Origin: Opitutia bacterium | GTDB taxonomy: Bacteria > Verrucomicrobiota > Verrucomicrobiia > Opitutales > T3Sed10-336 | Assembly: GCA_050506795.1 (NCBI GenBank) | Contig: JBJHCF010000066.1 | Coordinates: 1-17,129 of the forward strand | Direction: 5' to 3' | Length of the DNA stretch: 17,129 nucleotides | Shown: piece by piece, positions 1 through 17,002 of the stretch | Layout: every line of letters begins with the position of its first letter | Numbering within the stretch: position 1 is the first letter of the stretch | Made by a program: the position numbers and the translations under genes | The notes under the pieces: model-generated | Told to the model about the DNA's origin: nothing | Databases searched by the model: none | What the model saw: the letters and a program-made list of their open reading frames with translations, nothing else

Positions 1-249
1 GTCCTCCGCAGCAGCCTGGCCAACGCCTTCGTGGCCACCTACTCCTTGCGCATGCGCGGCGACTGCCTCCGCTTCCAAGCCCAATACCTCCGCCGTATCC
101 GCCTCCCGCGCTGGTCGACTCTCTCCGGTGAGCTCCAAACCACCCTCAAATCCCTCGCCGAATCCAACGACATCCCACGAATCGAGGATACCGTTCGTTC
201 ACTCTACGGTCTCGACGAAGCGGATTGGAACGCACTGCGCACTGACTGA
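1..249 (+). CDS. C-terminal end (5'-partial) of a PaeR7I/XhoI-type adenine DNA methyltransferase (type II R-M)
   Basis: Frame 1 is open from base 1: VLRSSLANAFVATYSLRMRGDCLRFQAQYLRRIRLPRW...LYGLDEADWNALRTD, stop TGA at 247-249. 'FVATYS.xMRG..LRFQAQYLRRIR.PRW' and 'LYGL' match the C-terminus of M.PaeR7I-family enzymes as I recall it. The gene lies 15 bp upstream of a PaeR7I-family endonuclease. Confidence 0.9.
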   Translation, partial: VLRSSLANAFVATYSLRMRGDCLRFQAQYLRRIRLPRWSTLSGELQTTLKSLAESNDIPRIEDTVRSLYGLDEADWNALRTD

Positions 250-264
250 TAACCGCCGACGAAC

Positions 265-999
265 ATGCCAAAAGCCGATTACTCCGACTCGATTCGAAAA
301 GCGGTCCGGTCTTACTGGAAAAGTAAGAACACCGCTCTCAAAAAGAATCAAGCGGGTCAAAGAGTCGACCAAGGGCGCCGAGGCGCGGCCACCGCCGGAA
401 AAAACTTCAACGGCTTCGCGAAAATGTTTGCCGCACTCGCGCAGAAATATGGTGGCAATTCACTCGAAATCTACGACAACAAGACACATGTTGTCCTCCC
501 CGGCCATTTCCGTCCGAGCAAGCAATGGGACTTGGTGCTGATCGATAAAGGCCGACTCATCGCGACACTGGAATTCAAAGCGCTCGGCGGCCCATCGTTC
601 GGCAACAACGCCAACAACCGCTGCGAAGAAGCCCTCGGCTCCGGGACCGACCTCTCTGTCGCCCAGCGCGAAGGCCGCTTCGGAGCCGGCGCCAACCCCT
701 TTATCGGCTATTGCATCCTCGTCGAAGACGAAGATAACTCCCGCTGCGTCCCCAAACGCGGCAACCCCTCCATTCACTTTGCGTCCGATCCCGTTTTCCG
801 CACAGCATCCTATCAAGAGCGCATGCGTATCCTCTGCGAACGCATGGTCCAGGAGCGCATCTACACCGCCGCCGCTGTTATTGCCTCACCGCCCAACGCC
901 GCCAAATCCGGTCTATTTACCGACCTGTCCACCGCCACCTCACTGAACCAACTGATAGCCCGGTTTCTCTCCCACGTTGAGATTGAGACCACCGGATGA
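265..999 (+). CDS. PaeR7I/XhoI-family type II restriction endonuclease
   Basis: 244 aa with family hallmarks DQGRRGAATAGKNFNGF, LPGHFRPSKQWDL, EFKALGGPSFGNNANNRCEEALG and ILCERMVQERIYTAA. The PD-(D/E)XK catalytic residues (WD...EFK) are intact. Confidence 0.92.
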   Translation: MPKADYSDSIRKAVRSYWKSKNTALKKNQAGQRVDQGRRGAATAGKNFNGFAKMFAALAQKYGGNSLEIYDNKTHVVLPGHFRPSKQWDLVLIDKGRLIATLEFKALGGPSFGNNANNRCEEALGSGTDLSVAQREGRFGAGANPFIGYCILVEDEDNSRCVPKRGNPSIHFASDPVFRTASYQERMRILCERMVQERIYTAAAVIASPPNAAKSGLFTDLSTATSLNQLIARFLSHVEIETTG

Positions 1000-1037
1000 A
1001 AAACTATGCGTGAAACCATTGCCTATCAAGACCACAC

Positions 1038-1071
1038 GATCCAGATACTGCGGTACCTTCGTATCTCAATC
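1038..1071. promoter_or_regulatory. Interrupted 34-bp palindrome upstream of the giant TPR-PIN gene (possible operator or hairpin)
   Basis: GATccAGATACtgcGGTACCttcGTATCTcaATC has dyad symmetry about a central GGTACC. It lies in the 114-bp gap between the endonuclease stop and the ATG at 1114. Confidence 0.4.
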
Positions 1072-1113
1072 AACTGTCGAAGCAAAACTTGCGTGATTAC
1101 AACATGATTATCG

Positions 1114-4100
1114 ATGGAGCCAATTCTCACATCATTTGCCATTAGTATTGGTACGAATGCGGCGATAGAAGCGATCGTAAGGCATAAAATTCAGTGTGCA
1201 GAACTGAAGGAGGCGGATGCCAGAGCACTACTCAAGCGAAACGAGATGTTCGTTGACTTCGAGAAACTCCTGAAACCACATGTCGACGAAGTTTTTAGTC
1301 AATTCGAGGTCGCGAAGGATCTGAACGACTTTCTATTGAGCGAATCTGCACGGAAAGAGCTATCGACTGAGATTCGTCGGCAGGCGGCCGAAAGTGAATG
1401 GTCGCGGCAAGCTGCGATCTCCGCGCTAACAGTTCCGGAGGATTTTGGGTTAATGCCTGAGTTGGAGAAATTTGTAGATGGACTAATCAACGCGGTCCAA
1501 CGGACAATCGCCAGGGATCAGATCCGTTGGAACGAGGCAATTATAAAGGCCATTGGTAAAATCCTGGTTGGTATCGATGAACTTAAGGAGGGCCAAGCTG
1601 ATATTGATGAGAAATCGGACGCCATTCTCAAAGAAGTCCATAGTTTAGGAGAACAACGACCTGCGATAAATCTTTCCGTCACCCAAAATCAGACGAATGT
1701 ATTTATGGGGCCTTCCATCCCTGAATCGCTCTCCGATGAGCTGGCAGCGGAGAGAAATCAGAGGCTTGATGAAATTCAGGATTTGCTACGAAGAGGGCGG
1801 AGTGGTGGTGCTGAAGCAAGGTTGCGAGAGTTGAGAAACACCCGCAGTTGGGAACATTTGCCGACAAAGGTGAAGGTTCGAGCGCTTCGGATGCATGCGG
1901 GCCTGGCACTCAGTGCTCGGGATGATGCCGTTCTTGCGGAAGAGCTTCTTGATGAGGCAAATAAACTGGATCCGGGCGCTCCGTCACCGTTTCATCAAGC
2001 GCTTCTTCTTCTGCATAAGGGCAAACTCGACGAAGCTTTAAGGGAGGTCAGCAGCCCTTCAAAATTAGATGAGTGGCACCTCAAAACAGCCATTCTCATC
2101 AACTTAGGGAAGCCACAAGAGGCCATCGACTTAATGTCCAAATCGGCATTCGACAGCAACGCTGAAACTTTTCGACTCAGAGCAATCGCCCAACTGATTC
2201 TCAAAAAGCCGTCTGAAGCCAAACGCCATGTGGATGAAGCGCTCGAAGCTTCCCCGGAATGGTTCAGTGTTAGAGAGACAGCGGGAAAGGTCTATTTCTA
2301 CTCAGCAATTACTACAACGTCGCCAGAATGGGGGCTTTGGGAGGCCCCTCCACCGACTAGGCTTGAATTTGTCAAGCTTGATCCCGAAAGCCAACAGTCG
2401 CTACAGAAGGCCGAGGCAATATTTAATGGACTGGCGTCCACCGAGGGAGTCGCAGAACGCGCACGTCTGCAGATGCGCATTTGGCGAATGGGATGCCTTT
2501 TCAACATGCCTGAAAGGCGGGCAGAGGCAGAACGGCTCTGCATTTCACTGCTCGAAGAAGCTCGGCTATCTTTTCCTGTGATAGCCTGGGCCATTGAAAA
2601 AGGAGTGGATTTTGACCATAAAAGTGTGCTGGAGGTCCTGGAGCAGGCGATATCGGAATCACCTGATATTCCCCATATTCAGACACGTTTCTTCCTGCTC
2701 TGCAGCCAACACAACTACGAAGAAGCCGGCAAACTCTTGGATAAGTTTCGCCACCTTTATGAGGAATCCTTGGCGTTCTCCGCTTGGGCATCTCAACGAA
2801 TCCAAATAGCGACGCTAAATGGCGAGACCACCTTGAGATCTGAGCTCCTGGCGCAAGATACCGCGGGAGAATTGAAAGGTGTGGCCGCCCAAGTTCAGGG
2901 CAGGAAAGATGGCTGGTCACCAGATGTGCTGCTCGAACTCGATCACGCCTTCCAGGAGTCGCAGCGGCCCGAAGACCTTTTCGCTGCTTGTGAAGCCCAC
3001 TGGTTCGCACGCGATTTTCAATTCATCCTTCAGCATACGGAGCAATTGTTGGCAGCATTCCCAACCGAAGCGACCCTTCGACTCGTGCTGGATTCGGCAT
3101 TTCGCTCGGGCGATCCTAAGCTGTGCCACACGCTGACGGAAAAGCATCAAGCGCTGCTGTCCGGAGGTATTTTCTCAGGTTCGATGAGACGGCTCCGATC
3201 TCGCTGCCTGTATTTGTTAGGGCGTTTCAGTGACGCCCGAGAGGAGTTGCGCCAGATTCAGACGGATGAGATTTCCTCAGAGGACAAATTCCACCTCTTC
3301 GACACGCAGCTGAAGTCTGGAGATCCCCATGGTGCGATTATTACTGCCAGGGAGTTGCTAGGTGCCCAAGACCTCACCGTGGATGGGCTGATCCATATTG
3401 CTGAGAGGGTTCGACCGGAAGATATGCACCTCGCAAGGGAGGCATTTCGGCGAGCGGAGGCGAAAGGAATCGACAATCCAATTACGGCAGCACGCGCAGT
3501 ATACGTTGGATTCAGGCTGGGGGAAGATGATCGATTGAAGGAAGTTCTCCGTCTTGCCACAGAGGGGGCTGGTGCTCCTGGTGCTCCTATGCAGGCTGTC
3601 AACCTGGAGCAGATCCTTGGCATAATGACGGATAATCGAGCTGCAGAGGAGGAAAGGGAACGTGAGTATCGGGAGGGTAGGATTCCAATTCATTTACTTG
3701 CAAGCATGGTGGGGAACCCGCTCTCATTCCTGGTTTGGTTAGCGCCTGAAAATTGTCGGAAATCAAAACAACCCCTATCAAGGCATTGGTCCCTCAGAAT
3801 TCAACACGGCACGGTCCGGAAGTCCAGGATTCGGAACATAGAAGCGCCGACCGGAGGGATGTTTCTGGACGTCACCTCTCTTCTCCTCATGCACGAACTC
3901 GACCTATTGAGAGTTGTGGAACAGAACTTCAGCCCTCTGCTCATTTCATCCTCGGTCCTCGCTTGGCTGGATGAGGAAATCGCCACAGTCACTGGCTACC
4001 AATTATCGCGGGAGACAGCCCAGAGGCACGCTAATAGTATCATTGATTCAGGTCTTCTCGAAATTATCGATGTAGAGTTTCTTGAACCCATTGATGACTA

Positions 4101-7100
4101 TACAGTCGGAGACCAGATGGGTGACGAGTGGTCACGACTAGCAAAACAAGCAATTAACCAAGATGGGTGGATCGTCGCATTTATCCCCCCCATGAAGTCT
4201 GGGATCACTGGAGAGCCTGCTGATTTGCCCGACAACGTTCGGTCATTGGTCTGTGACGCAGCATCCATTTGTAATGCACTTCATGCAGCCGGAAGATTAT
4301 CAGCACAGGAAATTGAAGAAGTGCTAGAGAAATTGGGTACACCTCAAACCGAAGGCGCTTCAATGGAGAACGATGAGAGTGACTCCGAAGACGAAGAAAA
4401 TTCTTCCGAGGAAGCAAAGTCTCCGCACCCCACGGTGATCCTGCGGGAGGGGCAGACCATAGTTTTACAGACAGGTCAGCTGGAGCAACTCGCTTACGCC
4501 GGTGCGCTTGGGCCGTTGGTCTCTTATGCGAACGTCGTAGTCGGGAAGGATGAAGTTGGTCGGATCAAGGAAGCGTTGGTCGAATTCGACATCCGAAGGA
4601 GGGCCCATGAGAAATTGAAGCACCTCCGCCAACACATCCGGCTGAAGATTGAGGGCAATATCTACTCAGAGCTCTCGGTGGACCATCTTGGGGCTGAGGA
4701 GCTACCTAAAACACAACGAACGCTCATTCGATGCCTGAAAGATGCTGTCGACACCGAGAGAACCGACGACATTTGGACATGTATCGATGACCGAATGTTG
4801 GGCCGATTCAAGAAGGTTGGACGATCGCCGATTGTGGGCACGATCGATCTCCTGGAATTCCTCGGAAGGCGAGGAGCGCTATCGCGAACAGAGCTGCTGA
4901 ACATCCATCATCGCCTCCGGTTAGGGAACGTCAGGTATCTGAACACAACAGCGGAGGAACTAATCGAGCAGCTTGGTCGAACCCAGATTCAGAACGGGTC
5001 CATCGTGGAAACCGTGGAACTCGCTACGATTCGGAAGTACTTCGCCGGCTGCCTTGCTGACGAAGCATCGCTACAGCGATTACCCGCAGACCATCCTAGG
5101 GCTAAAGTCTTGTCGGAGGCACTATTTTTGATGAGGCAGTATAATGTGGTGCTCGAAACGATAAGAAGCGTATGGGGAAGTGCCGATCTCTCAAAGGAAA
5201 AGCAAAGCGCCTACTCGGAATGGCTACTTGAGTCGCTTTGGTTCGATTCAGTCGGTCTGCCAGCACTAATAACGGAGTTTCAAGGTTCGGACAAACTTGT
5301 CGGACTCGCCCTTAGCCAGATTTTTTCCATCGGATTTCACCTTCCAGGAGTCTTTGACGACGGCGGGAGGGCTAAACAATTCTGGCACTGGCTCTTTTCT
5401 CGCATCGGAATCGAACCTAGTCGCTGGAACTCCGTCCTAGAATCCGTAAAGAAGGGAATCTTTGAGGTTGCTCGCAATTCAGGCAGCACAGATAAGCTCT
5501 TTATTTTCGGTGTAATGCATAGCAGCCTGACTAACTCAGTTCCTCGAATTTTGCTCCCAGCTCTTTCTCTTAGTGAAGAGGAATCACGGATTCTGAAAGC
5601 TGAAGATGCCAAATCAATCGAACTGGGACCGCATACGTTTTCCACTAATCTTTTTGGGGAATGCTGCGAAAAGGCTCTGGACGGCCAAGAGTCGTTCATT
5701 GAGACGCAGGGCTCTGAACCAAAGAAATTCAAGATGAGGATTGAAGAAAGCGGTGCCGATGAGGAAGAGGTGTTGACGATGGTCTTCGAGCCCGAATGTG
5801 GCGGTAAAAGTTTCAGATTGAGCAACGGGATGTTGTGTCTCCTACAACGTGATTCGGAGAGGCGAAAACACGCTCTGCAGAAGCTCCGCCAAACTCTCGA
5901 TCTCTCAAGGGAAGAGTCCACACCTGCTTTCGAGGTGATACTCAGCCTTAGCGAACCTGGGAGTCGAATCGAAGCATACACCGAACTGGAGAACAAAGCT
6001 TTTACGAAGCACCTTCGAGTGATTGCGTTTCAGCTAGGTGGCAGTGGACATCTCAATCTAGAGACATTGCGACCGAAGGGGGTAGAAATGATTCTTCACC
6101 ATTTGAGGCTCAAGAAAGGTCTCATGTGGCCACAGCTATGCGAGACGTTAGGCCAAGGTGCACAAACGCTGCTCAAAGATGAGGGATTTCAGGAGGCATT
6201 TTTCAGATTCTCCAGCCTCCCATTTCCTCTACCAGAGAACATTCGGGAGGCCTATTCGTCCTTAAAGGCGGAGGAACGGGCAGAATTCGCGGTTGTTGCT
6301 GGAAATGTCGTTTCAAATCCTCTGCTGGCTCTGCACACGGCTTCGGTCCTTTTGGAGGGAGACGCTAACGAACGGGCCAAGGGATTGGAGTTACTTTGTG
6401 GGGTGAGTCAAAATGAGAGCTTCGAGATGCTCAAGTATTTTGGGCACGTCCTTCGCTGGGCGTTTTCCTGCCTGTGTCACGATCAAAACGGCGATTTCGA
6501 AACGCTTGATTATGTTTTAGCCGCTTGGATCTATACCGGCCGGCTGGATCAAATCCCACGTGTTCCGCGAGACTTAGACGGCGCAGGTTCCTACTTCAAA
6601 AGCAACACACCGACTGCGGCAAAGTTCGCATTTTCGCCTGGGCTTCTGCGTGGAGATTCCCGTATTCACCCTCTCTGGTTTGAACCAGTGGTACTCCAAC
6701 TGGGGGGCGTTTCTCAGCTTCTGCCCCCTGACACAGTTCCCCATTCCATAGCGGAAAGGATTGGGAACGCCCTCTATCCACTCTGTTTTCCAATAGTGGA
6801 GCTACCTGAGCTACCCTCGATATTGATAACCCGAATGGGGGGAAATTATTCTCAGGCAACGGAAAGCTACCTGGAAACAGATCGCCTTTCAAGACTTGCC
6901 AAATTGCCCGGTTTAGAGCATTTAGAAAAAGCTATTGATCCGGCTAGAGGCGAAGAATTGGTTAGCCTTTTGGAGCGCCTCAAGAATTTTCCGAGCAATG
7001 CTGACCATTGGCTCCTCGTGACCGGTATTATAGGAAAATCCGCGCTAACACCTCAGCAAGTCGATCTGTTGGTCGATGCAATCAAAGAAATTAGATTTGG

Positions 7101-7488
7101 AGACGTCGCTGAATCTCCCAATCAGGTTACTGGAATTGGAATGGCTGTATTTGAATTAGCTCAACTTCCAGAATTAAAGAGAACCGAGGTCGATTGGCAA
7201 AGCTTACTAGAGTCGTTTGGAGATGTTGTTCTTTCACGCGATTTTTCAGGGAGTGATCGAGCTATAGAAGTGTTCATAAATGCGTCGTATTGTGTTGGGG
7301 TGTCGCCTGACGCGAGTGAAGAAGAAAATGTCAATGGATTTGTCAACGCGGTCAGACCGGTGATTGGTAAAAGGACGCGCGGCATGAATCTTTTGCGGCA
7401 AGCGCTCTTTCGGATAGCAAGTCGTCAGTCGAGCGGTGTCAGTGCGCCCTTGTGGCAGCTCATTAATGAATCGCGGGAGTTTTTTTAA
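1114..7488 (+). CDS. 2124-aa TPR-repeat protein with PIN-like nuclease region(s); probable anti-phage/conflict protein
   Basis: Uninterrupted 6.4-kb ORF. TPR-like helices span ~1740-3590 (e.g. AETFRLRAIAQLILKKPSEAKRHVDEALEASP; LRSRCLYLLGRFSDAREELRQI). PIN N-terminal motif MFLDVTSLLLMHELDLL starts at 3859. PIN C-terminal motif WTCIDDRMLG...VGTIDLLEFL..RGALS lies at ~4775-4885. No Walker A found. Composition is lower in GC than the host genes (hand counts: 29/60 at 2041-2100, 24/60 at 7141-7200, versus 47/60 at 9361-9420). Confidence 0.8.
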   Translation: MEPILTSFAISIGTNAAIEAIVRHKIQCAELKEADARALLKRNEMFVDFEKLLKPHVDEVFSQFEVAKDLNDFLLSESARKELSTEIRRQAAESEWSRQAAISALTVPEDFGLMPELEKFVDGLINAVQRTIARDQIRWNEAIIKAIGKILVGIDELKEGQADIDEKSDAILKEVHSLGEQRPAINLSVTQNQTNVFMGPSIPESLSDELAAERNQRLDEIQDLLRRGRSGGAEARLRELRNTRSWEHLPTKVKVRALRMHAGLALSARDDAVLAEELLDEANKLDPGAPSPFHQALLLLHKGKLDEALREVSSPSKLDEWHLKTAILINLGKPQEAIDLMSKSAFDSNAETFRLRAIAQLILKKPSEAKRHVDEALEASPEWFSVRETAGKVYFYSAITTTSPEWGLWEAPPPTRLEFVKLDPESQQSLQKAEAIFNGLASTEGVAERARLQMRIWRMGCLFNMPERRAEAERLCISLLEEARLSFPVIAWAIEKGVDFDHKSVLEVLEQAISESPDIPHIQTRFFLLCSQHNYEEAGKLLDKFRHLYEESLAFSAWASQRIQIATLNGETTLRSELLAQDTAGELKGVAAQVQGRKDGWSPDVLLELDHAFQESQRPEDLFAACEAHWFARDFQFILQHTEQLLAAFPTEATLRLVLDSAFRSGDPKLCHTLTEKHQALLSGGIFSGSMRRLRSRCLYLLGRFSDAREELRQIQTDEISSEDKFHLFDTQLKSGDPHGAIITARELLGAQDLTVDGLIHIAERVRPEDMHLAREAFRRAEAKGIDNPITAARAVYVGFRLGEDDRLKEVLRLATEGAGAPGAPMQAVNLEQILGIMTDNRAAEEEREREYREGRIPIHLLASMVGNPLSFLVWLAPENCRKSKQPLSRHWSLRIQHGTVRKSRIRNIEAPTGGMFLDVTSLLLMHELDLLRVVEQNFSPLLISSSVLAWLDEEIATVTGYQLSRETAQRHANSIIDSGLLEIIDVEFLEPIDDYTVGDQMGDEWSRLAKQAINQDGWIVAFIPPMKSGITGEPADLPDNVRSLVCDAASICNALHAAGRLSAQEIEEVLEKLGTPQTEGASMENDESDSEDEENSSEEAKSPHPTVILREGQTIVLQTGQLEQLAYAGALGPLVSYANVVVGKDEVGRIKEALVEFDIRRRAHEKLKHLRQHIRLKIEGNIYSELSVDHLGAEELPKTQRTLIRCLKDAVDTERTDDIWTCIDDRMLGRFKKVGRSPIVGTIDLLEFLGRRGALSRTELLNIHHRLRLGNVRYLNTTAEELIEQLGRTQIQNGSIVETVELATIRKYFAGCLADEASLQRLPADHPRAKVLSEALFLMRQYNVVLETIRSVWGSADLSKEKQSAYSEWLLESLWFDSVGLPALITEFQGSDKLVGLALSQIFSIGFHLPGVFDDGGRAKQFWHWLFSRIGIEPSRWNSVLESVKKGIFEVARNSGSTDKLFIFGVMHSSLTNSVPRILLPALSLSEEESRILKAEDAKSIELGPHTFSTNLFGECCEKALDGQESFIETQGSEPKKFKMRIEESGADEEEVLTMVFEPECGGKSFRLSNGMLCLLQRDSERRKHALQKLRQTLDLSREESTPAFEVILSLSEPGSRIEAYTELENKAFTKHLRVIAFQLGGSGHLNLETLRPKGVEMILHHLRLKKGLMWPQLCETLGQGAQTLLKDEGFQEAFFRFSSLPFPLPENIREAYSSLKAEERAEFAVVAGNVVSNPLLALHTASVLLEGDANERAKGLELLCGVSQNESFEMLKYFGHVLRWAFSCLCHDQNGDFETLDYVLAAWIYTGRLDQIPRVPRDLDGAGSYFKSNTPTAAKFAFSPGLLRGDSRIHPLWFEPVVLQLGGVSQLLPPDTVPHSIAERIGNALYPLCFPIVELPELPSILITRMGGNYSQATESYLETDRLSRLAKLPGLEHLEKAIDPARGEELVSLLERLKNFPSNADHWLLVTGIIGKSALTPQQVDLLVDAIKEIRFGDVAESPNQVTGIGMAVFELAQLPELKRTEVDWQSLLESFGDVVLSRDFSGSDRAIEVFINASYCVGVSPDASEEENVNGFVNAVRPVIGKRTRGMNLLRQALFRIASRQSSGVSAPLWQLINESREFF

Positions 7489-7649
7489 GCACCAGGACGG
7501 ACAATGGGGTCACGCCGTTGTTTGTTGATTTCTTCATCGGTTTTCCTGACGACGATAGTTCCGTGGGATTGGTAAAAAGAGCTGATGGTCATACTCAACA
7601 GGAAGGCTCTGGTCTAAAAGTCCTCACGCAAAAAGTCGCAGACCCTTCA

Positions 7650-7766
7650 CTACAGGACCCTGACTCCCGGGTAGGTGGGAATGGTTTGGTCCGACGTAAG
7701 GATTTCGAGCTTTCGCTCGAGGGCAGTGGCGATAATGAGGCGGTCAAACGGGTCTCTGTGTAAAGG
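7650..7766 (-). pseudogene. vapC: 5'-truncated VapC (PIN domain) toxin remnant
   Basis: Minus-strand translation PLHRDPFDRLIIATALERKLEILTSDQTIPTYPGVRVL* carries the classic VapC C-terminal motif H.DPFDR.IIA.A...LT.D. It has no start codon and no homologous N-terminal part. It ends CTG TAG TGA, consistent with the usual terminal Trp (TGG) having mutated to TAG. Confidence 0.85.
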
Positions 7767-7802
7767 CGATCCGCGGTTGCGGTCCGGGACAAACGGCCCA
7801 GA

Positions 7803-8531
7803 ATGAAAAGCATGAACTCACTCGAGGGAAAGGTGGCGATCGTGACCGGCGGAAACAGCGGCATCGGCCGGGCGATCGCGGAGGCGTTGGCCGCTGCCGG
7901 GGTTCGGGTCATGGTCGCCGGACGGCGGGAAGAGGCCAACCGGAAGGTTGTCGGTGAGCTGCGCGAAAAACACGGCGTCGATGCCGAGGCCATGACGACC
8001 GACGTCGCCATCGAAAGCGACTGCGTTAGCCTCATCGCGAAAACGCGCGAAAAGTTCGGACGACTCGATATCCTGGTCAACAACGCCGGTATCGGCGGAT
8101 GGGGAACCATCGTTGAAACCTCCACCGCGGACTTCGACCGCGTCCTGAAGACCAACCTCTACGGCGCCTTCTGGTGCGCCAGGGAAGCCTTTCGCGCCAT
8201 GTCCGAGAATCCGGAGGAAGCCGGAATCCGAGGCGCAATCGTGAACATTTCCTCCATCGCCGGAAAGGAAGCCTGGAGCGGGACCGGCACGTATTCGGTT
8301 TCCAAATTCGGTATAATGGCGCTGACCCAAACCCTTGCCGACGAAGGCAAAGCCCTCGGAATTCGCGCCACCGCTGTGTGTCCGGCCCTGGTCGCCACTC
8401 CCATGACCAACGCCTCCAGAAGCGAAGCGCTCCTGCCGGAGGACATCGCGGAAACCGTCCTTTACCTCCTCCGCCTCTCCCCCGCCGCCTGGCCCACCGA
8501 AGTCGCCCTCCCGCGCCGGGGCGCGGAGTGA
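7803..8531 (+). CDS. SDR family NAD(P)-dependent oxidoreductase
   Basis: Motifs TGGNSGIG, NNAG, the NISS catalytic Ser region and YSVSK (YxxxK). An alternative start ATG lies at 7812. Confidence 0.93.
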   Translation: MKSMNSLEGKVAIVTGGNSGIGRAIAEALAAAGVRVMVAGRREEANRKVVGELREKHGVDAEAMTTDVAIESDCVSLIAKTREKFGRLDILVNNAGIGGWGTIVETSTADFDRVLKTNLYGAFWCAREAFRAMSENPEEAGIRGAIVNISSIAGKEAWSGTGTYSVSKFGIMALTQTLADEGKALGIRATAVCPALVATPMTNASRSEALLPEDIAETVLYLLRLSPAAWPTEVALPRRGAE

Positions 8532-8665
8532 CGCCTGTTATTCCAAACCTTTTTGCAATCTCCCGCCAGTGCAAGTGGGTGTGCGATCAACAATTTCAAC
8601 CAACTCCTCAGCCGGCTCAAATCTTCGAGCGCGATTCCACCTAACGACTCGTACCGAGCCCTTGA

Positions 8666-9010
8666 TCAATCATCGAACCATTCGTCTTCCGGATCGAAGG
8701 CGGGAATGGGAATGTTGACGATTCGCAATGGCCCAACCGCGCGATGGCGGCAGCCGGGCTTAATGAGAATACTTGTCATCGGCTTCACCGCCACCAGCTC
8801 GCCGTCGAGCTCCATGTGACCTTCGCCTTCCAGAATCAGGTAAATTTCCGTCAGCTTCTTGTGATAATGACTTCTGCTGTCATTGGAGATATCCACAAGG
8901 TGAAGCGTTGCCACGGAATTGTCGGGGCGCACGAACGCGCGCCGGGTCGTCCCGCAAGGGCATTGCACGGACTCGATCTCTTCCAATTGTTCGATAATGT
9001 AGTTCTTCAT
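8666..9010 (-). CDS. Cupin domain protein
   Basis: Cupin motif 1 HYHKKLTEIYLILEGEG and motif 2 IKPGCRHRA. Start placed at ATG 9010, preceded by a GAGGA Shine-Dalgarno, rather than the TTG at 9025. Confidence 0.88.
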   Translation of the reverse strand: MKNYIIEQLEEIESVQCPCGTTRRAFVRPDNSVATLHLVDISNDSRSHYHKKLTEIYLILEGEGHMELDGELVAVKPMTSILIKPGCRHRAVGPLRIVNIPIPAFDPEDEWFDD

Positions 9011-9208
9011 TGGTCCTCGTTTCAAAGGTCGGGGTGGGCGCGCGAAAGTTGGCGCTTGTTTTGGTTCGTTTCGCCGGCCTTGCGGGCAATTTCAGTTTGG
9101 CCCTTCCGCAAGCGAGGGGCAAGTTCCGAACAACAGCCTCTCCGGAAGGTAAAGGAGATGTTATTTGTCGGGTTTTCCATTATGTTTATTTGCGCCCGCC
9201 GGGTTGGG

Positions 9209-10495
9209 ATGTCTTTCCTTGGCCACATGTACGCCAATGAGGAATTGATTCCCGAGCCGCCGGAAGTAACCGCATCCGACGACGGTTCAGGGGAGGCCGT
9301 GATTAACGTCGAATCGATTGAGCCCGGCGTTCCTGATTTTTCCGGACTGCAGGGCGCCGGCGACCGCGGCTGGCGGGACGCGATGATCGCTCTGCTGCGG
9401 CACGCGACGGCGAGCGGCGCGAGCGATCTCCACCTGAGCGCGGCGGCGCGGCCGTTCGTGCGGCGCAATCGCGAAAACGAGTACCTGGATTCCGAACCGC
9501 TCAGCGCCGAAGTCGCGGCAGGGCTGAACCGCGCGCTCCTGTCCCCGGCCCAGTGGGCCACCTTTCAGAACCATCAGGATTTCGACTTTGCGCTGCCCTT
9601 CTCCTCCGGCGAACGCTACCGCGCCAATCTCATGGTCCACAAGGACGGGTGCGCCGGTTCCTATCGAACGGTTCCCAGCGAGCTTCGATCCTTCACGGAA
9701 CTCGGCTTCCGCGACACAAAAACGATCGAAAAGCTGCTGGCCTACCACAACGGCCTGATCATCGTCGCGGGTCCGGTCGGCTCCGGAAAAACCACCACCC
9801 TCGCCTCCCTGGTGCATCACCTCAACCTGACGCGAGAGGATCATCTCATCTCCGTGGAGGAACCGATCGAGTTCGTTCATCAACCCAACCGCTGCGCCAT
9901 TACCCAACGCGGCGTCGGCCAGCACACCCAGACCTTTCACCGAGCCTTGAAAGGCGCGCTCCGGCAGGACCCGGACATCATTGTCATCGGTGAAATGCGC
10001 GACCTTGAAACCGTCGAAATGGCCATCAGCGCTTCCGAAACCGGGCACCTCGTTATCGGAACCATGCACACGAGCGACGCCGCCACGACTCTGAACCGGC
10101 TTCTCGACGTCTTTCCACCCGCCCAGCAGCCTCAAATCCGAGCGATGGTGGCCGAAAGTTTGCGCGGGATCATCTGCCAGCGTTTGCTTCCGTCCAAAAA
10201 CGGCGGGCTCGCCCTCGCGTGCGAACTCCTGGTCCGGAACACCGCCGTTTCCGCCCTGATCCGCGAAGGCAAGACCCAGGGACTCGGCAACGTGATGGAA
10301 ACGGGGAAAGCCGAAGGCATGGTGAGCATGGACAGCTCGGTGATGGCGTTGTGGCACGAAGGAAAGCTCTCCGACGAAATCGCCCTGGCCAATCTGCGAA
10401 GCGAGATCGCGGGCCGGGAAATCCGCATGCCGGCTCCCGCCGCCCCACCTCCGCCCGAACCCAAGAAACGCGGGCTCTTTGGCCGCAATCGATAA
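9209..10495 (+). CDS. pilT: PilT/PilU-family type IV pilus retraction ATPase (copy 1)
   Basis: Motifs ASDLHL, Walker A GPVGSGKTTT, Asp box EEPIEF, ALRQDPDIIVIGEMRD, His box GTMHT, and the AIRNLIRE equivalent AVSALIRE. The start is uncertain (ATG 9209 or 9227). The ORF-track start at 8744 overlaps the cupin gene and is unlikely. Confidence 0.88.
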   Translation: MSFLGHMYANEELIPEPPEVTASDDGSGEAVINVESIEPGVPDFSGLQGAGDRGWRDAMIALLRHATASGASDLHLSAAARPFVRRNRENEYLDSEPLSAEVAAGLNRALLSPAQWATFQNHQDFDFALPFSSGERYRANLMVHKDGCAGSYRTVPSELRSFTELGFRDTKTIEKLLAYHNGLIIVAGPVGSGKTTTLASLVHHLNLTREDHLISVEEPIEFVHQPNRCAITQRGVGQHTQTFHRALKGALRQDPDIIVIGEMRDLETVEMAISASETGHLVIGTMHTSDAATTLNRLLDVFPPAQQPQIRAMVAESLRGIICQRLLPSKNGGLALACELLVRNTAVSALIREGKTQGLGNVMETGKAEGMVSMDSSVMALWHEGKLSDEIALANLRSEIAGREIRMPAPAAPPPPEPKKRGLFGRNR

Positions 10496-10499
10496 TACC

Positions 10500-11555
10500 A
10501 TGGCACAACTCGACCGCTACTTACGTCAAATGCTTGAGGCGGACGGCTCCGACCTCCACCTCAGCGTGGGCTCGCCTCCGAAAATTCGTTCCTCGGGAGT
10601 GATCCTTCCGCTCGAAGACACCGTCCTGACCGCCGGCGATATGAGCGAACTCCTGCGGGAAATCTGTCCGGAAGACCGTTGGACCGATTACCTCGACCAC
10701 CAGGATCTGGACCTGGCCTACGAAATCCCCGGGCTCGCCCGGTTCCGCGGCAGTTTCCTCTACAATCACTGGGGCCAGGCCGCCGTCTTCCGCCAGATTC
10801 CCGCCGACATCCTTTCCTTCGACAAACTCGGTCTGCCCGACGTGCTTCGCCAGGTATGCGGTTACAACGAGGGGCTGATCCTCGTTACAGGCCCGACGGG
10901 AAGCGGCAAGTCGACCACGCTCGCCGCGATGATCGACTACATCAACGAGCATTATCAAAAGCACATCATCACCATCGAGGATCCGATCGAGTTCGTGCAT
11001 CCCAAGAAGCGCAGCGTGATCGTTCATCGCGAAGTGGGCTCCCACACCGACTCCTTCGCCAGGGCCTTGCGCGGAGCCATGCGCGCCGATCCGGACATCG
11101 TGCTGGTCGGGGAAATGCGGGAACTGGAAACGATCAAGCTGGCCCTGAACTGTGCCTCCATGGGCATGCTCGTCTTCGGGACGTTGCACACCAACAACGC
11201 GCCGAAAACCATCGACCGCATCATCGACGCGTTTCCGGCCGACGAACAGGCGCAGATCCGTATCATGCTGGCCAACAGTCTCGCCTGTGTCGTTTCTCAG
11301 CTGCTCTGCAAGCGTCAACCCAAAGGCCGGGTCGCCGTGCATGAAATCCTGCTCAAACACGATGCTCTTCCCAACACCATACGGACCGGACGCATCAGCG
11401 ACATCCGCGGCATCATCGAAAGCGGCTCGGCCCAGGGCATGCGCATGATGGACAGTTCCATCCGCAAATGCCTTGAAGCCGGCACGATTTCGAAAGAGGA
11501 AGCGTACATGAAGGCCTCAGACAAGGACGCCTTCTCCCATTTGCTGACGCCTTGA
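10500..11555 (+). CDS. pilT: PilT/PilU-family type IV pilus retraction ATPase (copy 2)
   Basis: Motifs GSDLHLSVGSPP, Walker A GPTGSGKSTT, EDPIEF, AMRADPDIVLVGEMRE and GTLHTNNA. The ATG at 10500 lies 4 nt after the stop of copy 1 (TAA tacc ATG). Confidence 0.92.
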   Translation: MAQLDRYLRQMLEADGSDLHLSVGSPPKIRSSGVILPLEDTVLTAGDMSELLREICPEDRWTDYLDHQDLDLAYEIPGLARFRGSFLYNHWGQAAVFRQIPADILSFDKLGLPDVLRQVCGYNEGLILVTGPTGSGKSTTLAAMIDYINEHYQKHIITIEDPIEFVHPKKRSVIVHREVGSHTDSFARALRGAMRADPDIVLVGEMRELETIKLALNCASMGMLVFGTLHTNNAPKTIDRIIDAFPADEQAQIRIMLANSLACVVSQLLCKRQPKGRVAVHEILLKHDALPNTIRTGRISDIRGIIESGSAQGMRMMDSSIRKCLEAGTISKEEAYMKASDKDAFSHLLTP

Positions 11556-11651
11556 CCCCGGTCTCGGTCGGGCGTCCGAGGACGAAGGGATGTACCGTGC
11601 GCTTGTGCGCCAAATGGCCATGACCCTTTACCGGCAAACCAAACAGCAACG

Positions 11652-12458
11652 TTACTTCTTTGGCCGTGCGTGGAAGGTGTAAAATACTCCGGCGGCGAAG
11701 AACGTTCCGTTCTCGTGGGATTGAATCATGTGCCTGACCCACGATTCGGCTTCTTCCGGGGAGAGTATGCCAAGAGTGGGGATCAGGCGCGCGAAACCGT
11801 GCACGCTGGAAAGCCAGTAGTCTCCCTTGCCGCATTCGGAGATCACTTCGGAATCGTGGTTCGACAGCTCGAATTCAGCCGTTTTCAGAAGGCGCGGAAG
11901 CTGACGGCAGACGTCGGGATGAGTGGCGATCGCCGAGGTCAATAGATGGTCGATGCGACGAGTCACCTCGTAGCTCGGCTGGCTGTAGGTTGTGCCGGCA
12001 TGATCGGCGTCAAACACGATGAGACGCCCGCTCGTTTTTAAAACCCGATACGCCTCCTTGAGAATGGCCTCTGGATCAGGAACATGGCTCAGCAGCGTGT
12101 GCATGACAACAACATCAAACGTCGATTCCGCGTAAGGCAGCGGGCCGGGCGACAGGTGATCCCATTGGACCCCGATGTCCGGAGCCAGGCGAGCGGCTTC
12201 TTTCAATAGAACCGCGCTGACGTCCCCTCCGTGCAGCGTTGAGGACGCGTGAAGGACTTCCGCGAGCTGGCGGACGACCACTCCCGTGCCGCAGCCGAGA
12301 TCGAGGACTGTCAGTGGCTCGTCGCGCGGTAACGTCGCCGAATACTTCCGGATCATCCGCAGGAATCGGCTATCCCGGCCTCGTTCTTCCAGACGGGTAA
12401 TCATCGCTTGAGTCGCGGCTTCGGACTGAGCATCCGGGTTCGTGTAGGGATCAGGCAT
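11652..12458 (-). CDS. Class I SAM-dependent methyltransferase (UbiE/Methyltransf_11-like, small-molecule substrate unknown)
   Basis: Motif [10 protein letters not shown], followed by [23 protein letters not shown] and [13 protein letters not shown]. Confidence 0.88.
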
Positions 12459-12508
12459 AAGCTTATTGGTTTTTTATCGCCGGGAACAGGGCAGACAGGC
12501 CCCCAACC

Positions 12509-12550
12509 TAACCGCAGAACGGTTATCGACACAACCGTTAACGGTTAACA
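12509..12550. promoter_or_regulatory. Cluster of palindromic operator-like sites between the divergent methyltransferase and melA genes
   Basis: TAACCG-N5-CGGTTA at 12509-12525, a perfect 14-bp palindrome AACCGTTAACGGTT at 12533-12546, and an overlapping GTTAACGGTTAAC at 12537-12549. These resemble LacI/GalR-type AAnCGnTT operators. Confidence 0.55.
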
Positions 12551-12604
12551 CAAACAATGCTCCGCCAACAGGTCCACCCGACGCCCGCGACCCACGGGAA
12601 GCCG

Positions 12605-12633
12605 TTGACAGAATCACCACGAACTGACACGTT
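12605..12633 (+). promoter_or_regulatory. Possible sigma70 promoter for melA
   Basis: Perfect TTGACA at 12605-12610. At 17-nt spacing the -10 is only CACGTT (weak). Confidence 0.3.
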
Positions 12634-12692
12634 CCCAAAAAACCTTGAAACGGCATCCCTCCGTGAACGAGGGACAAAAGAAAGGATCAGAT

Positions 12693-14111
12693 ATGGCGAA
12701 GATTGCGATGATCGGTGCGGGAAGTTTGGTTTTCTGCAAAACCCTGATGGCGGACTTTCTGGCGACACCCGCGCTGGCGGGAAGTGAATATCGGCTGATG
12801 GCGCTGACCCACACCCGCCTGGACAAAATGCACGACTTCGTTAAGCGGATGATCAGCGACAACGGCATCGATGCGAGCGTGATGGCCACGACCGACCGCC
12901 GGGAAGCGCTCAAAGACGCGGATTACGTGGTGGTGATGTTGCAGGCCGGGGGCGTTGCCGAGTTCGCCCAGGATTATGAGATTCCGCTCAAATACGGTGT
13001 CGACCAGTGCATCGGCGATACCCTGGGGCCGGGAGGCGTGTTCCGGGCCCTGCGGCACATTCCGGCGCTGCTGGAGATCGCCGAGGACATGCGTGAGCTG
13101 TGTCCGAACGCCATCCTGTTCAACTACGCCAATCCGATGGCCATGTGTTGCTCGGCTCTCGGCCGGGTGCCGGATCTCCAGTTTGTCGGCCTTTGCCATG
13201 GCGTGCAGACGACGATGGACCTGATCGCGAGCTACACCGACGTCCCCAAGGAGGAGATCGATTTTGTGGCCGCGGGCATCAATCACATGGCGTGGTTCCT
13301 GAAACTCGAGCACCAGGGCCGGGATTTGTATCCGCTGCTGAAAGCGAATTTTGAGAAGCCGGGTTATTATGTGAACGAAAAGGTGCGGGGTGAGGTGATG
13401 CGGCATTTCGGTTATTTTATGACCGAGAGCACCGGACACCTTTCGGAATACCTGCCCTATTTTCGCAAGAACCAAAAGGCGTTGGATCTGTACTGCGACG
13501 AGCCGGCCTTCGGCGGCGAAAGCGGCGCCTATTATAAATACTGCGCCATGCTGGCGGAAAAATTCAGCAAAACGGATCCGCTGTCGATCGAGTCGACCGA
13601 ACTGGGCGAACGCAGCGCGGAGTATTGTTCCCACATCATCGAGGCGAAGGAAACCGGTGAGGTTTTTCGCCTTAACGGAAACGTTCGCAACGACGGCTAC
13701 ATCACCAACCTGCCCAACGGGTGCTGCGTTGAAGTGCCGATTTTTGTGGACCGCAACGGCTTGCAGCCGACAGTGGTGGGCGACCTGCCGCCGCAATGCG
13801 CCGCCTTGAACATGACCAACGTGCTGGTCCAGCAGTTGACGGTGGAAGCAAGCTTCACCGGCGACGTCGAACTGGTGATGCAGGCGGTGGCGCTGGATCC
13901 GCTAACGGCGGCGGTGCTGACGCTGGATGAGATCCGCCAGATGACGGCCGAGATGCTGGAAGCCGAGGCGAAGTACCTGCCGCAGTTCGCCGGGAAAACA
14001 CTCCGAAAAGTGCCGCCGATCCAGGTGCCGGCCGACGTCGTGCGCCAGGATGTTCCGGTCGACCCGGCCCTGGCGATCGCCAACCGTTTCGGAAAACTGG
14101 CCGAAGCGTAG
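12693..14111 (+). CDS. melA: Glycoside hydrolase family 4 NAD+/Mn2+-dependent alpha-galactosidase
   Basis: Motifs KIAMIGAGSLVF, GDTLGPGGVFRALRHIP, NYANPM, VGLCHGVQ, GINHMAW, TESTGHLSEY and NVRNDGYITNLP..CCVEVP. Start ATG 12693 with an AAGGA Shine-Dalgarno. Confidence 0.9.
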   Translation: MAKIAMIGAGSLVFCKTLMADFLATPALAGSEYRLMALTHTRLDKMHDFVKRMISDNGIDASVMATTDRREALKDADYVVVMLQAGGVAEFAQDYEIPLKYGVDQCIGDTLGPGGVFRALRHIPALLEIAEDMRELCPNAILFNYANPMAMCCSALGRVPDLQFVGLCHGVQTTMDLIASYTDVPKEEIDFVAAGINHMAWFLKLEHQGRDLYPLLKANFEKPGYYVNEKVRGEVMRHFGYFMTESTGHLSEYLPYFRKNQKALDLYCDEPAFGGESGAYYKYCAMLAEKFSKTDPLSIESTELGERSAEYCSHIIEAKETGEVFRLNGNVRNDGYITNLPNGCCVEVPIFVDRNGLQPTVVGDLPPQCAALNMTNVLVQQLTVEASFTGDVELVMQAVALDPLTAAVLTLDEIRQMTAEMLEAEAKYLPQFAGKTLRKVPPIQVPADVVRQDVPVDPALAIANRFGKLAEA

Positions 14112-14242
14112 GCGAATGGGTTCCGTGCTCCCAACCCGGCGGCGTCGGTAGCGATCGGGAGTTACATAGAGGGCACTCGGTTAAGGCAGGTGGTCGGTGA
14201 GAATCGGACGGAGGAGGAACAGAGTTATTCATCGGGTTCGCA

Positions 14243-14330
14243 GACACACCCCACCGCTCTTGTTAGAGGGGATCAAATAACAATTCCCCTCTTGAGAGGG
14301 GGGCCCCGCGCCTGCGGGGTGGGGTGTGTC
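14243..14330. repeat. Palindromic CCCCTCT/AGAGGGG-type repeat pair (REP-like stem-loop)
   Basis: 13-bp perfect IR GACACACCCCACC (14243-14255) / GGTGGGGTGTGTC (14318-14330), an inner IR AGAGGGGA (14265-14272) / TCCCCTCT (14285-14292), and an overlapping CCCCTCTTGAGAGGGG. Confidence 0.75.
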
Positions 14331-14536
14331 GTTACCGCGCAGCAGCGAGATTCAGTGCTCGACAACACCCTTAACCGAGTAGCATTCCGGTTAAGGCGGC
14401 TCATCGTTTGATGAAGCAAAAAAATACAACGGACGAAGCGCAGCAGCGCGTAGATGGTGAGCGAACGCGAGTCCCGAAGGGACGATTTCCGGCGGGTGCC
14501 CTCTGGGCGACGGGAACCGCAAATGCGGAGATTGGA

Positions 14537-14600
14537 CTCACACGGAGCCACAAAGTCACGGAGATTCTTACAGGACGCACCTCCGTGAGCTCAGTGTGAG
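14537..14600. repeat. CACGGAG/CTCCGTG inverted-repeat element
   Basis: CTCACACGGAGCCACAAAGTCACGGAG (14537-14563) pairs with CTCCGTGAGCTCAGTGTGAG (14581-14600), with a 7-nt bulge and one mismatch. Confidence 0.7.
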
Positions 14601-14705
14601 AACCTTCACCGTTCAGCAATGTTTTAACAGGGTATGGTTTTGGTGATCTTGCCAAAGTAGGACTACTCTGCTTCGATCCACCACCTTAACCGAGTGCCAT
14701 TCGGG

Positions 14706-16796
14706 CTAGGGGCTGTCGGGCCGTCGGAGGCGGAAGAAACGCTGGGGGTCCTCGGTTGGCAATTCAACTGTCATTTCGCCTTCCTGAGCCGGAACGGCGT
14801 TTTCGACAGCGGACCACTCGCTTTCCCCGAGGTCATCCGTGGTTTCGAGAATCCATCCGGCTTCGCCTGAGGTCCAGGACAATCGGATACCGCCCAGCTC
14901 GCCCATTGAGATCGACTCGGCCCGAAGGCCTGGCCCTGGAAGGTCGCCGGTTTCGGGAAGGTCGCCAAGGCGCAGGATCGTTCCGTTGCCCCCCACCGCC
15001 CATCCGGTGTCAAAATCGAAGAGGTGAATCGCATTGAGCGGATTGGACGTAACGGAACTGACAGTAACGCCGCTTCCGAATTCCAGTGCCGTCCAGTTTT
15101 CCCCGCCGTCGTTCGTGTGGGCCATCAAACCGATCGTGCCGACGATCCTGCCGTTCTGTGCGTCCGAAAACCGAACCTTTTGCGCGCCAATAATAGTGCT
15201 GAGACCACTGAATAGCTCTGCTTGCTGGGTCCAGGTCACACCGCCGTCGGTAGTGTGCAATATTCCCGAACCCCCGACCGCCCAACCGGTCATCGTATCG
15301 AGGAAAAACACGTCGCTTAAATTCCAGGTCTTGCCGCTTTCCTGAGGGGTCCAGGTTTCCCCGCCGTTGGTGGTGTGAAGGATCATCCCGGAATTGCCGA
15401 CCACCCAACCGCGGTCGGCGTCCAGGAAGTACACGCCGTTCGCCTGGGAAATCCCGGCGGGATGCTGAGGCTCCCAACTCAGACCGCCGTCCGAAGTGTG
15501 CAGAATGAGACCGTTGCCGGACTGGCGTCCAACGATCCAGCCCCGATCGGCGTCGACGAATTGCACGTCGTCCAAAACGACCGTTCCGCTCGGCAAGGTC
15601 GCGTGCTGGCTCCAGGTCTGACCGGCGTCCGAGGTGTGCAGGATGAACCGGTTGTTGCCCACGATCCAACCGCGGCTATCGCTGACGAAGGACATGGCAT
15701 TGTACTGTGAGGCCGAAGAAGACACGTCGAGCCGATTCCAGGTGTGCCCGCCGTTGGTGGTACGAAATACGGTTCGTGACGTCCCCACCGCCCAGCCGCG
15801 CAAACGGTCCGAGAACCAGACGTCGTTCAGGCCGCTGCGGACGCCGCCCAGCACCGGACTCCAGCTGGAACCCCCATTGGTTGTCCGGCTGATCGCACCA
15901 TTAATTGCTAACGCCCAACCGTTTTGATCGTCCGAAAAATGCGCCATAGTTCCCGGAGGACTGACGGTCACCTGTGTCCAGGTTTCCCCTCCGTCAATCG
16001 TCCGTAAGTACCGGGATCCGAATATCCAGCCGTTGTCCCGGTCGAGGAATTGGATTTTTTGGAATGATCCCGCGCCGAAATCCTGAGGCTCCCAAGTTTC
16101 GCCGCCATCGGTTGTCCGTCGCAGAAAAGAGTTTCCCGTCGCCCAACCGTTTTGGGCATCCGCAAAATAAATGGCATTGATTGCATTGCTAAACCCACTG
16201 GGATGAGGCGCCCACGTGGCTCCGCCATCCGTGCTGCGCACCAGGGTACCGCTGGCTCCCGCCGCCCAGGCGTTGTCGGCGTCGATGAAATGAATGGAGG
16301 TTAACCGTGAATTGCTGCCTGTGCTCACGGTGATCCAGTTCACCCCGCCGTCGGTGGTGCGAACCATATTGGGAGACCCTCCGCCTCCACCGACGCCCCA
16401 GCCGTTCATAGGGTCGGAAAAGTGCAAGGCTTCGATTGCCGATGGGACGAAGCTGGAGGCGGGAAGCCAGGATTCCCCGCCGTCGGTGGTGCGCAGAAGT
16501 GTGCCCCACATTCCCCCGATCCAACCGCGATTTTCATCGAGAAAGTAAACGGATTCCAGGTCATATCGGGTGCCCGAATCGACCAGACGCCAGCTCTGCC
16601 CCCCGTCGGTCGTTTTCAGGATCGTACCCACGTTGCCCACCGCGATGGCGGTATCGCCGTCAAGGGCATGAATGTCATTCATGAAGTTTCCGTTCGGCAA
16701 TGGATTGTGCCAGGTCCAGTCCGAAGGATCGCCGTACAAAAATTGCGTGGCCGCTCCAACCAGAGCAGCCAGGATAAAACCAATGGTAACACGCAT
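14706..16796 (-). CDS. Secreted YCF48-like/BNR (Asp-box) double beta-propeller protein with a C-terminal Verrucomicrobia-type domain
   Basis: Start ATG 16796 with GGAG/AAGG upstream, then a signal-peptide-like MRVTIGFILAALVGAATQFLYG. It contains 13 Asp boxes (TTDGG.SW type) in ~42-aa repeats plus a closing blade GWAVGGNGTILR, giving about 14 blades. The tail reads IRLSW...WILETTDDL...W...RFFRLRRP. Confidence 0.88.
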   Translation of the reverse strand: MRVTIGFILAALVGAATQFLYGDPSDWTWHNPLPNGNFMNDIHALDGDTAIAVGNVGTILKTTDGGQSWRLVDSGTRYDLESVYFLDENRGWIGGMWGTLLRTTDGGESWLPASSFVPSAIEALHFSDPMNGWGVGGGGGSPNMVRTTDGGVNWITVSTGSNSRLTSIHFIDADNAWAAGASGTLVRSTDGGATWAPHPSGFSNAINAIYFADAQNGWATGNSFLRRTTDGGETWEPQDFGAGSFQKIQFLDRDNGWIFGSRYLRTIDGGETWTQVTVSPPGTMAHFSDDQNGWALAINGAISRTTNGGSSWSPVLGGVRSGLNDVWFSDRLRGWAVGTSRTVFRTTNGGHTWNRLDVSSSASQYNAMSFVSDSRGWIVGNNRFILHTSDAGQTWSQHATLPSGTVVLDDVQFVDADRGWIVGRQSGNGLILHTSDGGLSWEPQHPAGISQANGVYFLDADRGWVVGNSGMILHTTNGGETWTPQESGKTWNLSDVFFLDTMTGWAVGGSGILHTTDGGVTWTQQAELFSGLSTIIGAQKVRFSDAQNGRIVGTIGLMAHTNDGGENWTALEFGSGVTVSSVTSNPLNAIHLFDFDTGWAVGGNGTILRLGDLPETGDLPGPGLRAESISMGELGGIRLSWTSGEAGWILETTDDLGESEWSAVENAVPAQEGEMTVELPTEDPQRFFRLRRPDSP

Positions 16797-17002
16797 AAGC
16801 AGCCTTTCTCCGAGGCGAGAATAGTGGCATGGAGGGGAGGCAACAAGCAGGCTGTCGATCGCCACCCCAATTTCAGGCATTCTCTGATGCCGACGGAAGC
16901 CTTTCACCACATCCACGATGCAGTAACCCAGATCGAAAGAATCTTCGCTATTTGAGGTGGGCTCCGAATCAGTGATTTCTGGGAACTGGCACCCCCGAAA
17001 AT

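Follow-up and report, generated by a model that had tools for sequence, protein, structure and literature searches.

In Avs/STAND proteins, an N-terminal effector and a TPR sensor are combined in one large protein, and the effector heads come from a pool shared with the family described here. The gene analyzed here encodes a giant protein of 2124 aa (1114..7488, + strand, intact frame) within the first 17,129 bases of contig C66 of an Opitutia bacterium; this whole stretch is called the window, and its position 1 is the first base of the contig. Membership in the Avs/STAND group was rejected, because the protein has no Walker A motif, no STAND domain and no PADLOC match. The pattern [AG]xxxxGK[ST] was not found in the giant protein, nor GxxxxGK[ST] in 160 family proteins, and comparison with PADLOC and NCBIfam gave no match. 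An earlier sequence-only reading, which had excluded Avs/STAND for want of a Walker A motif, was correct on this point. Closer to the giant protein are the TPR-GreA/B-C-PIN (TGP) conflict proteins of Kaur, Iyer, Burroughs and Aravind (2021, PMC8195603), which join an exchangeable N-terminal effector to a TPR-PIN core that stays constant, have no nucleoside triphosphatase (NTPase) and mostly stand alone, and all of this applies to the giant protein as well. In the Bab/Agp system of E. coli ECOR25, a TGP protein triggers a Bell-type effector, and T5 infection is aborted (10.1101/2024.11.07.622273, accessible text). Since two defining TGP features fail in the giant protein, it is an enlarged relative of these proteins, a variant rather than a TGP member.

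When the databases were searched with residues 800-1999, 1,193 clusters at 50% identity were obtained (E up to 0.001), spread across many phyla, and the details given below come from the best 150 of them. Because the 6.4-kb frame has homologues along its whole length, it is not a chance ORF (open reading frame). Homology to relatives begins at about residue 200, and the plan of the family is a swappable head followed by a constant core of TPR, helix-turn-helix (HTH), two PIN repeats and helical solenoid. In the giant protein, the core starts with a TPR-like solenoid (aa ~205-825, 1726..3588, + strand, as are all parts of the gene), where the Pfam TPR matches were weak (E 1e-4 to 0.3, all below cut-off); together with the homology from aa ~200, they bear out the TPR region proposed from the letters alone. 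Next comes HTH_upst_double_PIN (PF24407; aa 831-899, 3604..3810), which scored 26.4 bits in one scan (cut-off 27) and 32.8 bits in another, and this is followed by PIN repeat A (aa 910-1078, 3841..4347), PIN repeat B (aa 1108-1278, 4435..4947), and a C-terminal helical solenoid in an ARM/HEAT-like arrangement (aa 1279-2124, 4948..7485), which houses a beta insert (aa 1501-1570, 5614..5823). The HTH immediately upstream of two PIN repeats and the full-length homology assign the protein to the HTH-double-PIN family of PF24407 and PF24388. As these two models describe the family core, the architecture is already known to Pfam curators. The layout is therefore not an unknown one: Pfam models are named for it, and the accessible part of the Kaur 2021 supplement holds one 2304-aa TM+SIR2+TPR+PIN+PIN+TM row versus ~1,400 GreAB-C+PIN rows (2,862 occurrences, two per row). 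As a point in common with TGP proteins, the PIN model PF20698 matched many homologues weakly and one (P0012) above cut-off. The same model had no match in 401 genomes of the phylum, this genome included.

Compared with TGP proteins, the giant protein is longer (~2,100 aa versus mostly 1,050-1,500 aa in the full-length TGP rows of the accessible supplement), and the position of the TGP GreA/B-C, between TPR and PIN, is filled by the helical HTH of PF24407. Moreover, it has two intertwined internal PIN repeats instead of a single C-terminal PIN, and an 850-aa solenoid with a putative permuted GreA/B-C after them. The resemblance to TGP proteins that had been proposed for this sequence is supported, and the segment written as YREGRIPIHLLA in the sequence-only reading, now identified as the HTH of PF24407, is indeed preceded by no GreA/B-C. 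A related domain may lie elsewhere in the protein, as PF24388 maps to residues ~1504-1564 by way of a homologue.

The two PIN repeats align with each other with a probability of 94% and an E value of 1.2e-7, and in an AlphaFold model of aa 825-1345 (predicted local distance difference test, pLDDT, 92; predicted template modeling score, pTM, 0.87) the identical order of strands and helices appears twice. Analysis of this model with VIA gave top rows that were nearly all PIN domains (EST1A with Z 7.0, a root-mean-square deviation, rmsd, of 3.1 and 127 aligned residues; Nmd4, SMG5, Utp24, VapC). These rows cover model residues ~84-430 (aa 908-1251), with 92-152 aligned, and a second, Rossmann-like group covers model residues 155-335. 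This pattern fits a modeled arrangement in which repeat A gives the front half of an outer PIN and repeat B its back half, the other two halves forming a second composite within it. Covariation over 168 sequences paired strand 1 of A with strand 4 of B (maximum z 7.8) and not with its own strand 4 (1.9), and strand 1 of B with strand 4 of A (8.5) and not with its own (2.3). When 233 sequences were used, the top 40 long-range pairs comprised 22 of the cross-over type, 9 between the two crossing helices, 6 inside one half, and 3 linking the halves of one repeat. In the same 233 sequences, the residues of the outer composite were conserved in nearly all cases (D919, given by repeat A, in 229; D1225, D1226 and R1227, given by repeat B, in 227, 228 and 232), D1245 of repeat B being a further member of the site. 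In the inner composite, aspartate at the first position (1119) occurred in 42 of 233, and in the giant protein this residue is Q and residue 1022 is A. Collectively, VIA and the conservation of D919, D1225 and D1226 indicate a PIN fold with conserved acidic residues, and the computed model and covariation show the repeats folding across each other into one predicted PIN domain with near-invariant acidic residues. Because the outer acidic residues are near-invariant and the first aspartate of the inner composite is lost, we infer from the model one working site and one degenerate scaffold site. The PIN motifs noted beforehand thus correspond to a PIN fold in the model, although to two repeats and not to a single domain.

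Some points speak against this reading of the repeats. Foldseek gave no match with the PIN model, and the VIA Z-scores for PIN domains were all below 8. In addition, model and covariation are not independent, because the underlying alignments overlap, and covariation alone cannot separate a swap within one chain from a swap between chains. An acidic linker modeled with low confidence (aa ~1080-1105, window 4348-4434) lies between the repeats and is longer here than outside this subclade.

The C-terminal ~850 aa, which had been left unassigned, can now be described as a helical solenoid with a beta insert. The model of aa 1346-2124 (pLDDT 90, pTM 0.92) was helical apart from the insert at 1501-1570, and its comparison by Foldseek and VIA returned generic ARM/HEAT solenoids alone, the best with Z 10.1 and rmsd 18.7. 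The insert runs as a hairpin, a helix and four strands, the order expected of a circularly permuted GreA C-terminal domain. In homologues, this is the position of Pfam Permuted_GreAB-C (PF24388), which matched 8 of 34 homologues below cut-off. The only match above cut-off that was seen (31.7 bits) fell on the C-terminal piece of a split member, L026, in a stretch corresponding to residues ~1504-1564 of the giant protein. The GreA link of the insert is therefore putative and comes from Pfam's label. It is weakened by the lack of any PF24388 match in the giant protein itself and by an hhalign comparison of the insert with GreA-C, native and permuted, that gave no signal with a shallow GreA alignment of 14 rows, one of them wrong. 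Neither the Atlas features nor the covariation of the insert gave a GreA signal, the covariation leaving its topology unsettled, and sequence searches of the PDB returned nothing useful. GreA/B C-terminal domains in this phylum (L029-L058) were mostly found inside frames of 620-820 aa, far longer than the usual GreA; such long GreA/B proteins are listed as GreAB in the accessible table of Kaur 2021 (PMC8195603).

Members of other lengths were also observed. Many of 1,580-1,595 aa (P0030, P0033, P0034, P0037, P0085, P0091, P0106 and P0125 are listed) share a start near residue 523 with a similar motif, and another group of 1,770-1,795 aa starts near residue 347; judged from their sequences, these shorter members may be split genes or artefacts of start calling. 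At L026:6995-13500, a member is annotated as two overlapping genes, broken just before the beta insert. No longer fused forms were found among 1,538 candidates of 3,722-5,000 aa, which is weak evidence.

The heads were surveyed in 96 homologues with a full N-terminus, i.e., reaching about residue 200. Fifty-five of them cluster with Mrr-like restriction endonucleases (REases), eight are HNH-like by eye, four PNPase, four alpha/beta hydrolase and two SIR2, with single cases of Cap4, SMEK, TIR and trypsin, and several helical (one NNH2) or short G/N/Q/V/I-rich heads. Nearly the same list of effectors is given for the mostly stand-alone TGP proteins in the accessible part of Kaur 2021 (PMC8195603). 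The giant protein and its closest relatives (P0001-P0004) have a common head that was seen nowhere else in the homologue set. In a tree of 46 chosen rows, this clade with helical heads falls within the REase-headed members (support 0.99), so a nuclease head has been exchanged for a helical one. The head of the giant protein (aa 1-200, 1114..1713) begins with MEPILTS and has a hydrophobic first helix, in which residues 4-22 exceed every other 19-mer of the protein in hydrophobicity; MEPIS-type starts are rare, with 7 among 2335 long ORFs. A 'MEPIS' N-terminal motif is common to Bell domains and anti-phage NLRs, and Avast2 activity needs it, according to the accessible part of the Bab/Agp study (10.1101/2024.11.07.622273). 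By analogy, and on weak evidence, the head may be a Bell/'MEPIS'-like helical death domain, a candidate Bell/NNH-like membrane-targeting effector. The likeness to Bab/Agp would lie in a TGP-type sensor with a helical membrane-targeting effector and in the conserved N-terminal helix, 'MEPIS'-type there and MEPILTS here. The effector is fused in the giant protein but a separate gene in Bab/Agp, and the head has ~200 aa versus ~80.

Several results argue against such an assignment of the head. It had no match in Pfam, NCBIfam, PADLOC or PDB sequences, no signal came from comparing its profile with those of other helical heads, and the Atlas leads, NNH2 (0.81) and NNH5 (0.78), were both below 0.9. 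Moreover, two REase-headed relatives also begin with MEP, and P0004 starts with MIPF instead. A supposed amyloid motif at aa 184-199 was dropped because it scored at the level of background and is absent from P0004; nowhere in the giant protein did an amyloid-like stretch exceed background. In other members (L080, L082, L125, L127; P0007, P0111, P0130), the head consists of, or finishes with, a short stretch rich in G/N/Q/V/I that resembles an amyloid signaling motif by composition, a further likeness of the family to Bab/Agp. Immediately upstream of the L080 member is a 651-aa gene in the same orientation, and the L082 member stands among TPR and NB-ARC genes; it is possible, to judge by sequence, that members with such heads form Bab/Agp-like pairs.

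On balance, we think it probable, if by no means certain, that the giant protein is a stand-alone anti-phage (abortive infection, Abi) protein of an enlarged TGP-like family, inserted at this place because the slot collects defense genes. Its constant core with a swappable head, the PIN cross-over and the lack of a fixed restriction-modification (R-M) partner come from computation, and we infer the trigger, the activity of the head and PIN catalysis. Sensing, of a phage protein or of a host machine altered by the phage, would fall to the two solenoids (TPR and C-terminal), perhaps together with a contact between the beta insert and RNA polymerase. The body would then change shape or oligomerize without an NTPase, releasing the head, and the first helix of the Bell/'MEPIS'-like head would kill the infected cell by membrane damage. 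As for the single PIN site, it could cleave RNA, either as the first line of defense or in support, or it could take part in sensing. No experimental study of any double-PIN member was found in the literature searched, subscription papers and bioRxiv supplements being outside the search, and this counts against the proposal.

Because of the analogy to Bab/Agp, the head would be a likelier killer than the PIN site. The sequence-only reading of a single-gene TPR-PIN conflict protein, free of NTPase and found in defense-rich places, is supported, but by this analogy its view of PIN as the effector is the less likely one. The opposite arrangement, in which the PIN site is the main effector, binding RNA polymerase or ribosomes hijacked by the phage and cutting RNA, and the head an inert adaptor or oligomerization domain, is doubtful. 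In the accessible text of the Bab/Agp study, no Bab-independent activity was found for Agp, although the result with the PIN mutant was confounded by instability (10.1101/2024.11.07.622273), and the repeated exchange of enzymatic heads in the family suggests killing by the head. The PIN-effector arrangement has on its side the composite PIN site, near-invariant regardless of the head, the weak support for a toxic head, and a proposal of transcript cleavage by PIN in the accessible part of Kaur 2021 (PMC8195603).

To describe the surroundings of the family, 80 loci (63 distinct at 90%) were collected, many with short flanks, from subclades other than P0001-P0004; 148 of 187 flanking ORFs were scanned with Pfam, and PADLOC and record annotations were used for some others. 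Among the 58 loci that have a flanking ORF, ~24 had a defense-type gene within two ORFs, versus 1 of 20 places picked at random in this genome. The comparison suffers from its one-genome control and from subjective labels. These neighbors included pPIWI-RE, TIR, NB-ARC, nSTAND, AbiE, SNF2/DEAD helicases, DUF499, DUF6527 and toxin-antitoxin pairs. The expected presence of homologues near defense genes was thus observed; the expected enrichment near PaeR7I-type R-M was absent, since none of the 80 family loci had an XhoI-type REase. Distant members at L024:3680-6046 and L100:2318-3025 lie just downstream of DUF6527 genes, and L024 also has multi-ubiquitin and ThiF genes, so a recurring link of the family to a ubiquitin-like system is possible from gene content.

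The place of the giant gene behind an XhoI-type R-M pair had led to the proposal of a guard like PrrC, a protein of the ABC-ATPase/HEPN kind whose gene belongs to a type I operon (EcoprrI) and which is physically tied to that R-M system. The giant protein would monitor the pair and fire upon a phage anti-restriction protein. Both are nuclease genes beside R-M genes, but here there is no NTPase, the R-M system is of type II, and no co-occurrence was found: besides the 80 family loci without an XhoI-type REase, the family was absent from 11 loci of close REase relatives; it was also absent from the 25 other XhoI-positive genomes of the order (26 of 401 genomes carry an XhoI-type gene; two positive controls were detected), and XhoI from the 3 other family-positive genomes of the phylum. 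Moreover, in L013 the slot taken by the giant gene is occupied by Lamassu lmuA-lmuC-lmuB (9855-13550), which follows an XhoI-type REase related to the present one at a distance of ~115 bp. The guard would gain from the common strand, the 114-bp gap with no terminator-like site found in it, and a clear R-M component within two ORFs at 3 of 58 family loci, each of a different kind (HsdM, HsdS, type IIG-like). We consider it very unlikely, and an obligate R-M partnership was rejected for lack of co-occurrence in either direction. The neighborhoods show defense-island clustering with no fixed R-M partner, and the place next to R-M genes looks incidental, although a local link is possible in the four-member subclade P0001-P0004. 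The slot downstream of the R-M cassette looks like a landing place for defense genes.

The cassette itself is ordinary, and its named relatives are mostly from Opitutales. The window opens with the 3' tail (82 codons, 1..249, + strand) of a type II DNA methyltransferase (MTase), whose 5' part, the first ~516 codons, is at the end of contig C65, and this is followed by a 244-aa type II REase of the XhoI/PaeR7I family (265..999, + strand; Pfam XhoI, E 1.4e-57, and a PADLOC REase_II match). The co-directional layout with gaps of 15 bp and 114 bp was confirmed, with the MTase present here as a tail only. The MTase of the sister cassette L011 (PADLOC MTase_II, E 1.8e-201) matches this tail at 93%, and its first 516 codons match C65. 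An XhoI-family REase adjoining a type II MTase makes this a type II R-M system of the XhoI/PaeR7I family. C65 and C66 overlap inexactly, by 111 nt at 97.3% identity. A frameshift or chimera at the locus was rejected, as one contig of run X1, from which this DNA may come, covers window 1-9000 unbroken, together with 2,618 nt upstream.

CTCGAG was the second most avoided of the 64 six-base palindromes genome-wide (observed/expected 0.60), which fits the XhoI-type specificity predicted from sequence. CAGCTG was avoided even more (0.55), and this suggests another R-M specificity in the lineage.

L011 is 91% identical across window 1-1060 and diverges beyond; because its identity ends there, within the spacer between the REase and the giant ORF (1000..1113), the left edge of the acquired gene is likely at ~1060. 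No sigma-70-like promoter or terminator was found in window 900-1200. The giant gene has a GC content of 0.509 and a third-position GC content (GC3) of 0.516, versus 0.57-0.64 and 0.68-0.77 in five neighboring genes. No paralogue was found in the same genome, and the family was absent from 11 other genomes of the host's taxonomic family and present in 4 of 401 genomes of the phylum. A recent insertion behind the R-M cassette is the best explanation of the giant gene. Many family loci adjoin integrases, transposases or parAB genes, and eight plasmid records carry members; this mobility, with the patchy spread just described, would also suit a gene that is not anti-phage at all, i.e., selfish addiction or anti-plasmid cargo, or a decaying passenger. 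That explanation is quite unlikely, as the frame and all conserved residues of the giant protein are intact, no conserved antitoxin-like partner was seen among the family neighbors, and the heads are typical immune effectors.

Other features of the region include a 66-bp stretch of the REase gene (878..943, + strand), repeated at 88% on C65 ~220 bp upstream of the MTase start. The two copies bracket most of the R-M cassette and may possibly be the scar of a duplication or insertion. In L011, the R-M cassette has on either side (1295-1439 and 4557-4639) a copy of a repeat whose sequence corresponds to the beginning of a type IIG-like ORF fragment; further copies are present in the genome of the giant gene itself (G000, contigs C51 and C78). 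The remaining part of the window (7803-16916) carries ordinary genes: a short-chain dehydrogenase/reductase (SDR), a cupin, two PilT/PilU ATPases, an S-adenosylmethionine (SAM) methyltransferase, an alpha-galactosidase and a YCF48-like beta-propeller protein.

What is new here is a structural feature, the cross-over PIN. The fold predicts a single catalytic site, to which residues 300 positions apart contribute, with the second site as a scaffold. A bolder idea, which we regard as unlikely, is that these proteins form a widespread class of NTPase-free giant immune receptors of their own, separate from TGP. A cross-over swap inside one chain would lock the tandemly duplicated PIN, and the two long crossing helices would act as a switch replacing the STAND ATPase. 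A ligand on the solenoids would re-pair the halves within or between chains, assembling the catalytic site and clustering or freeing the head, here a fused Bell-like pore former. If true, such a protein would amount to an NLR-like receptor that uses a split nuclease as its switch. The family is large, with its 1,193 clusters, and was missed by PADLOC 2.0, and sampling the slot behind the R-M cassette in more genomes may yield other systems. The natural head swaps make it possible to test sensor and effector one at a time. Should RNA polymerase be what the body senses, the Bab/Agp result would extend to a one-protein design, and this would bear on how receptors without an NTPase are switched.

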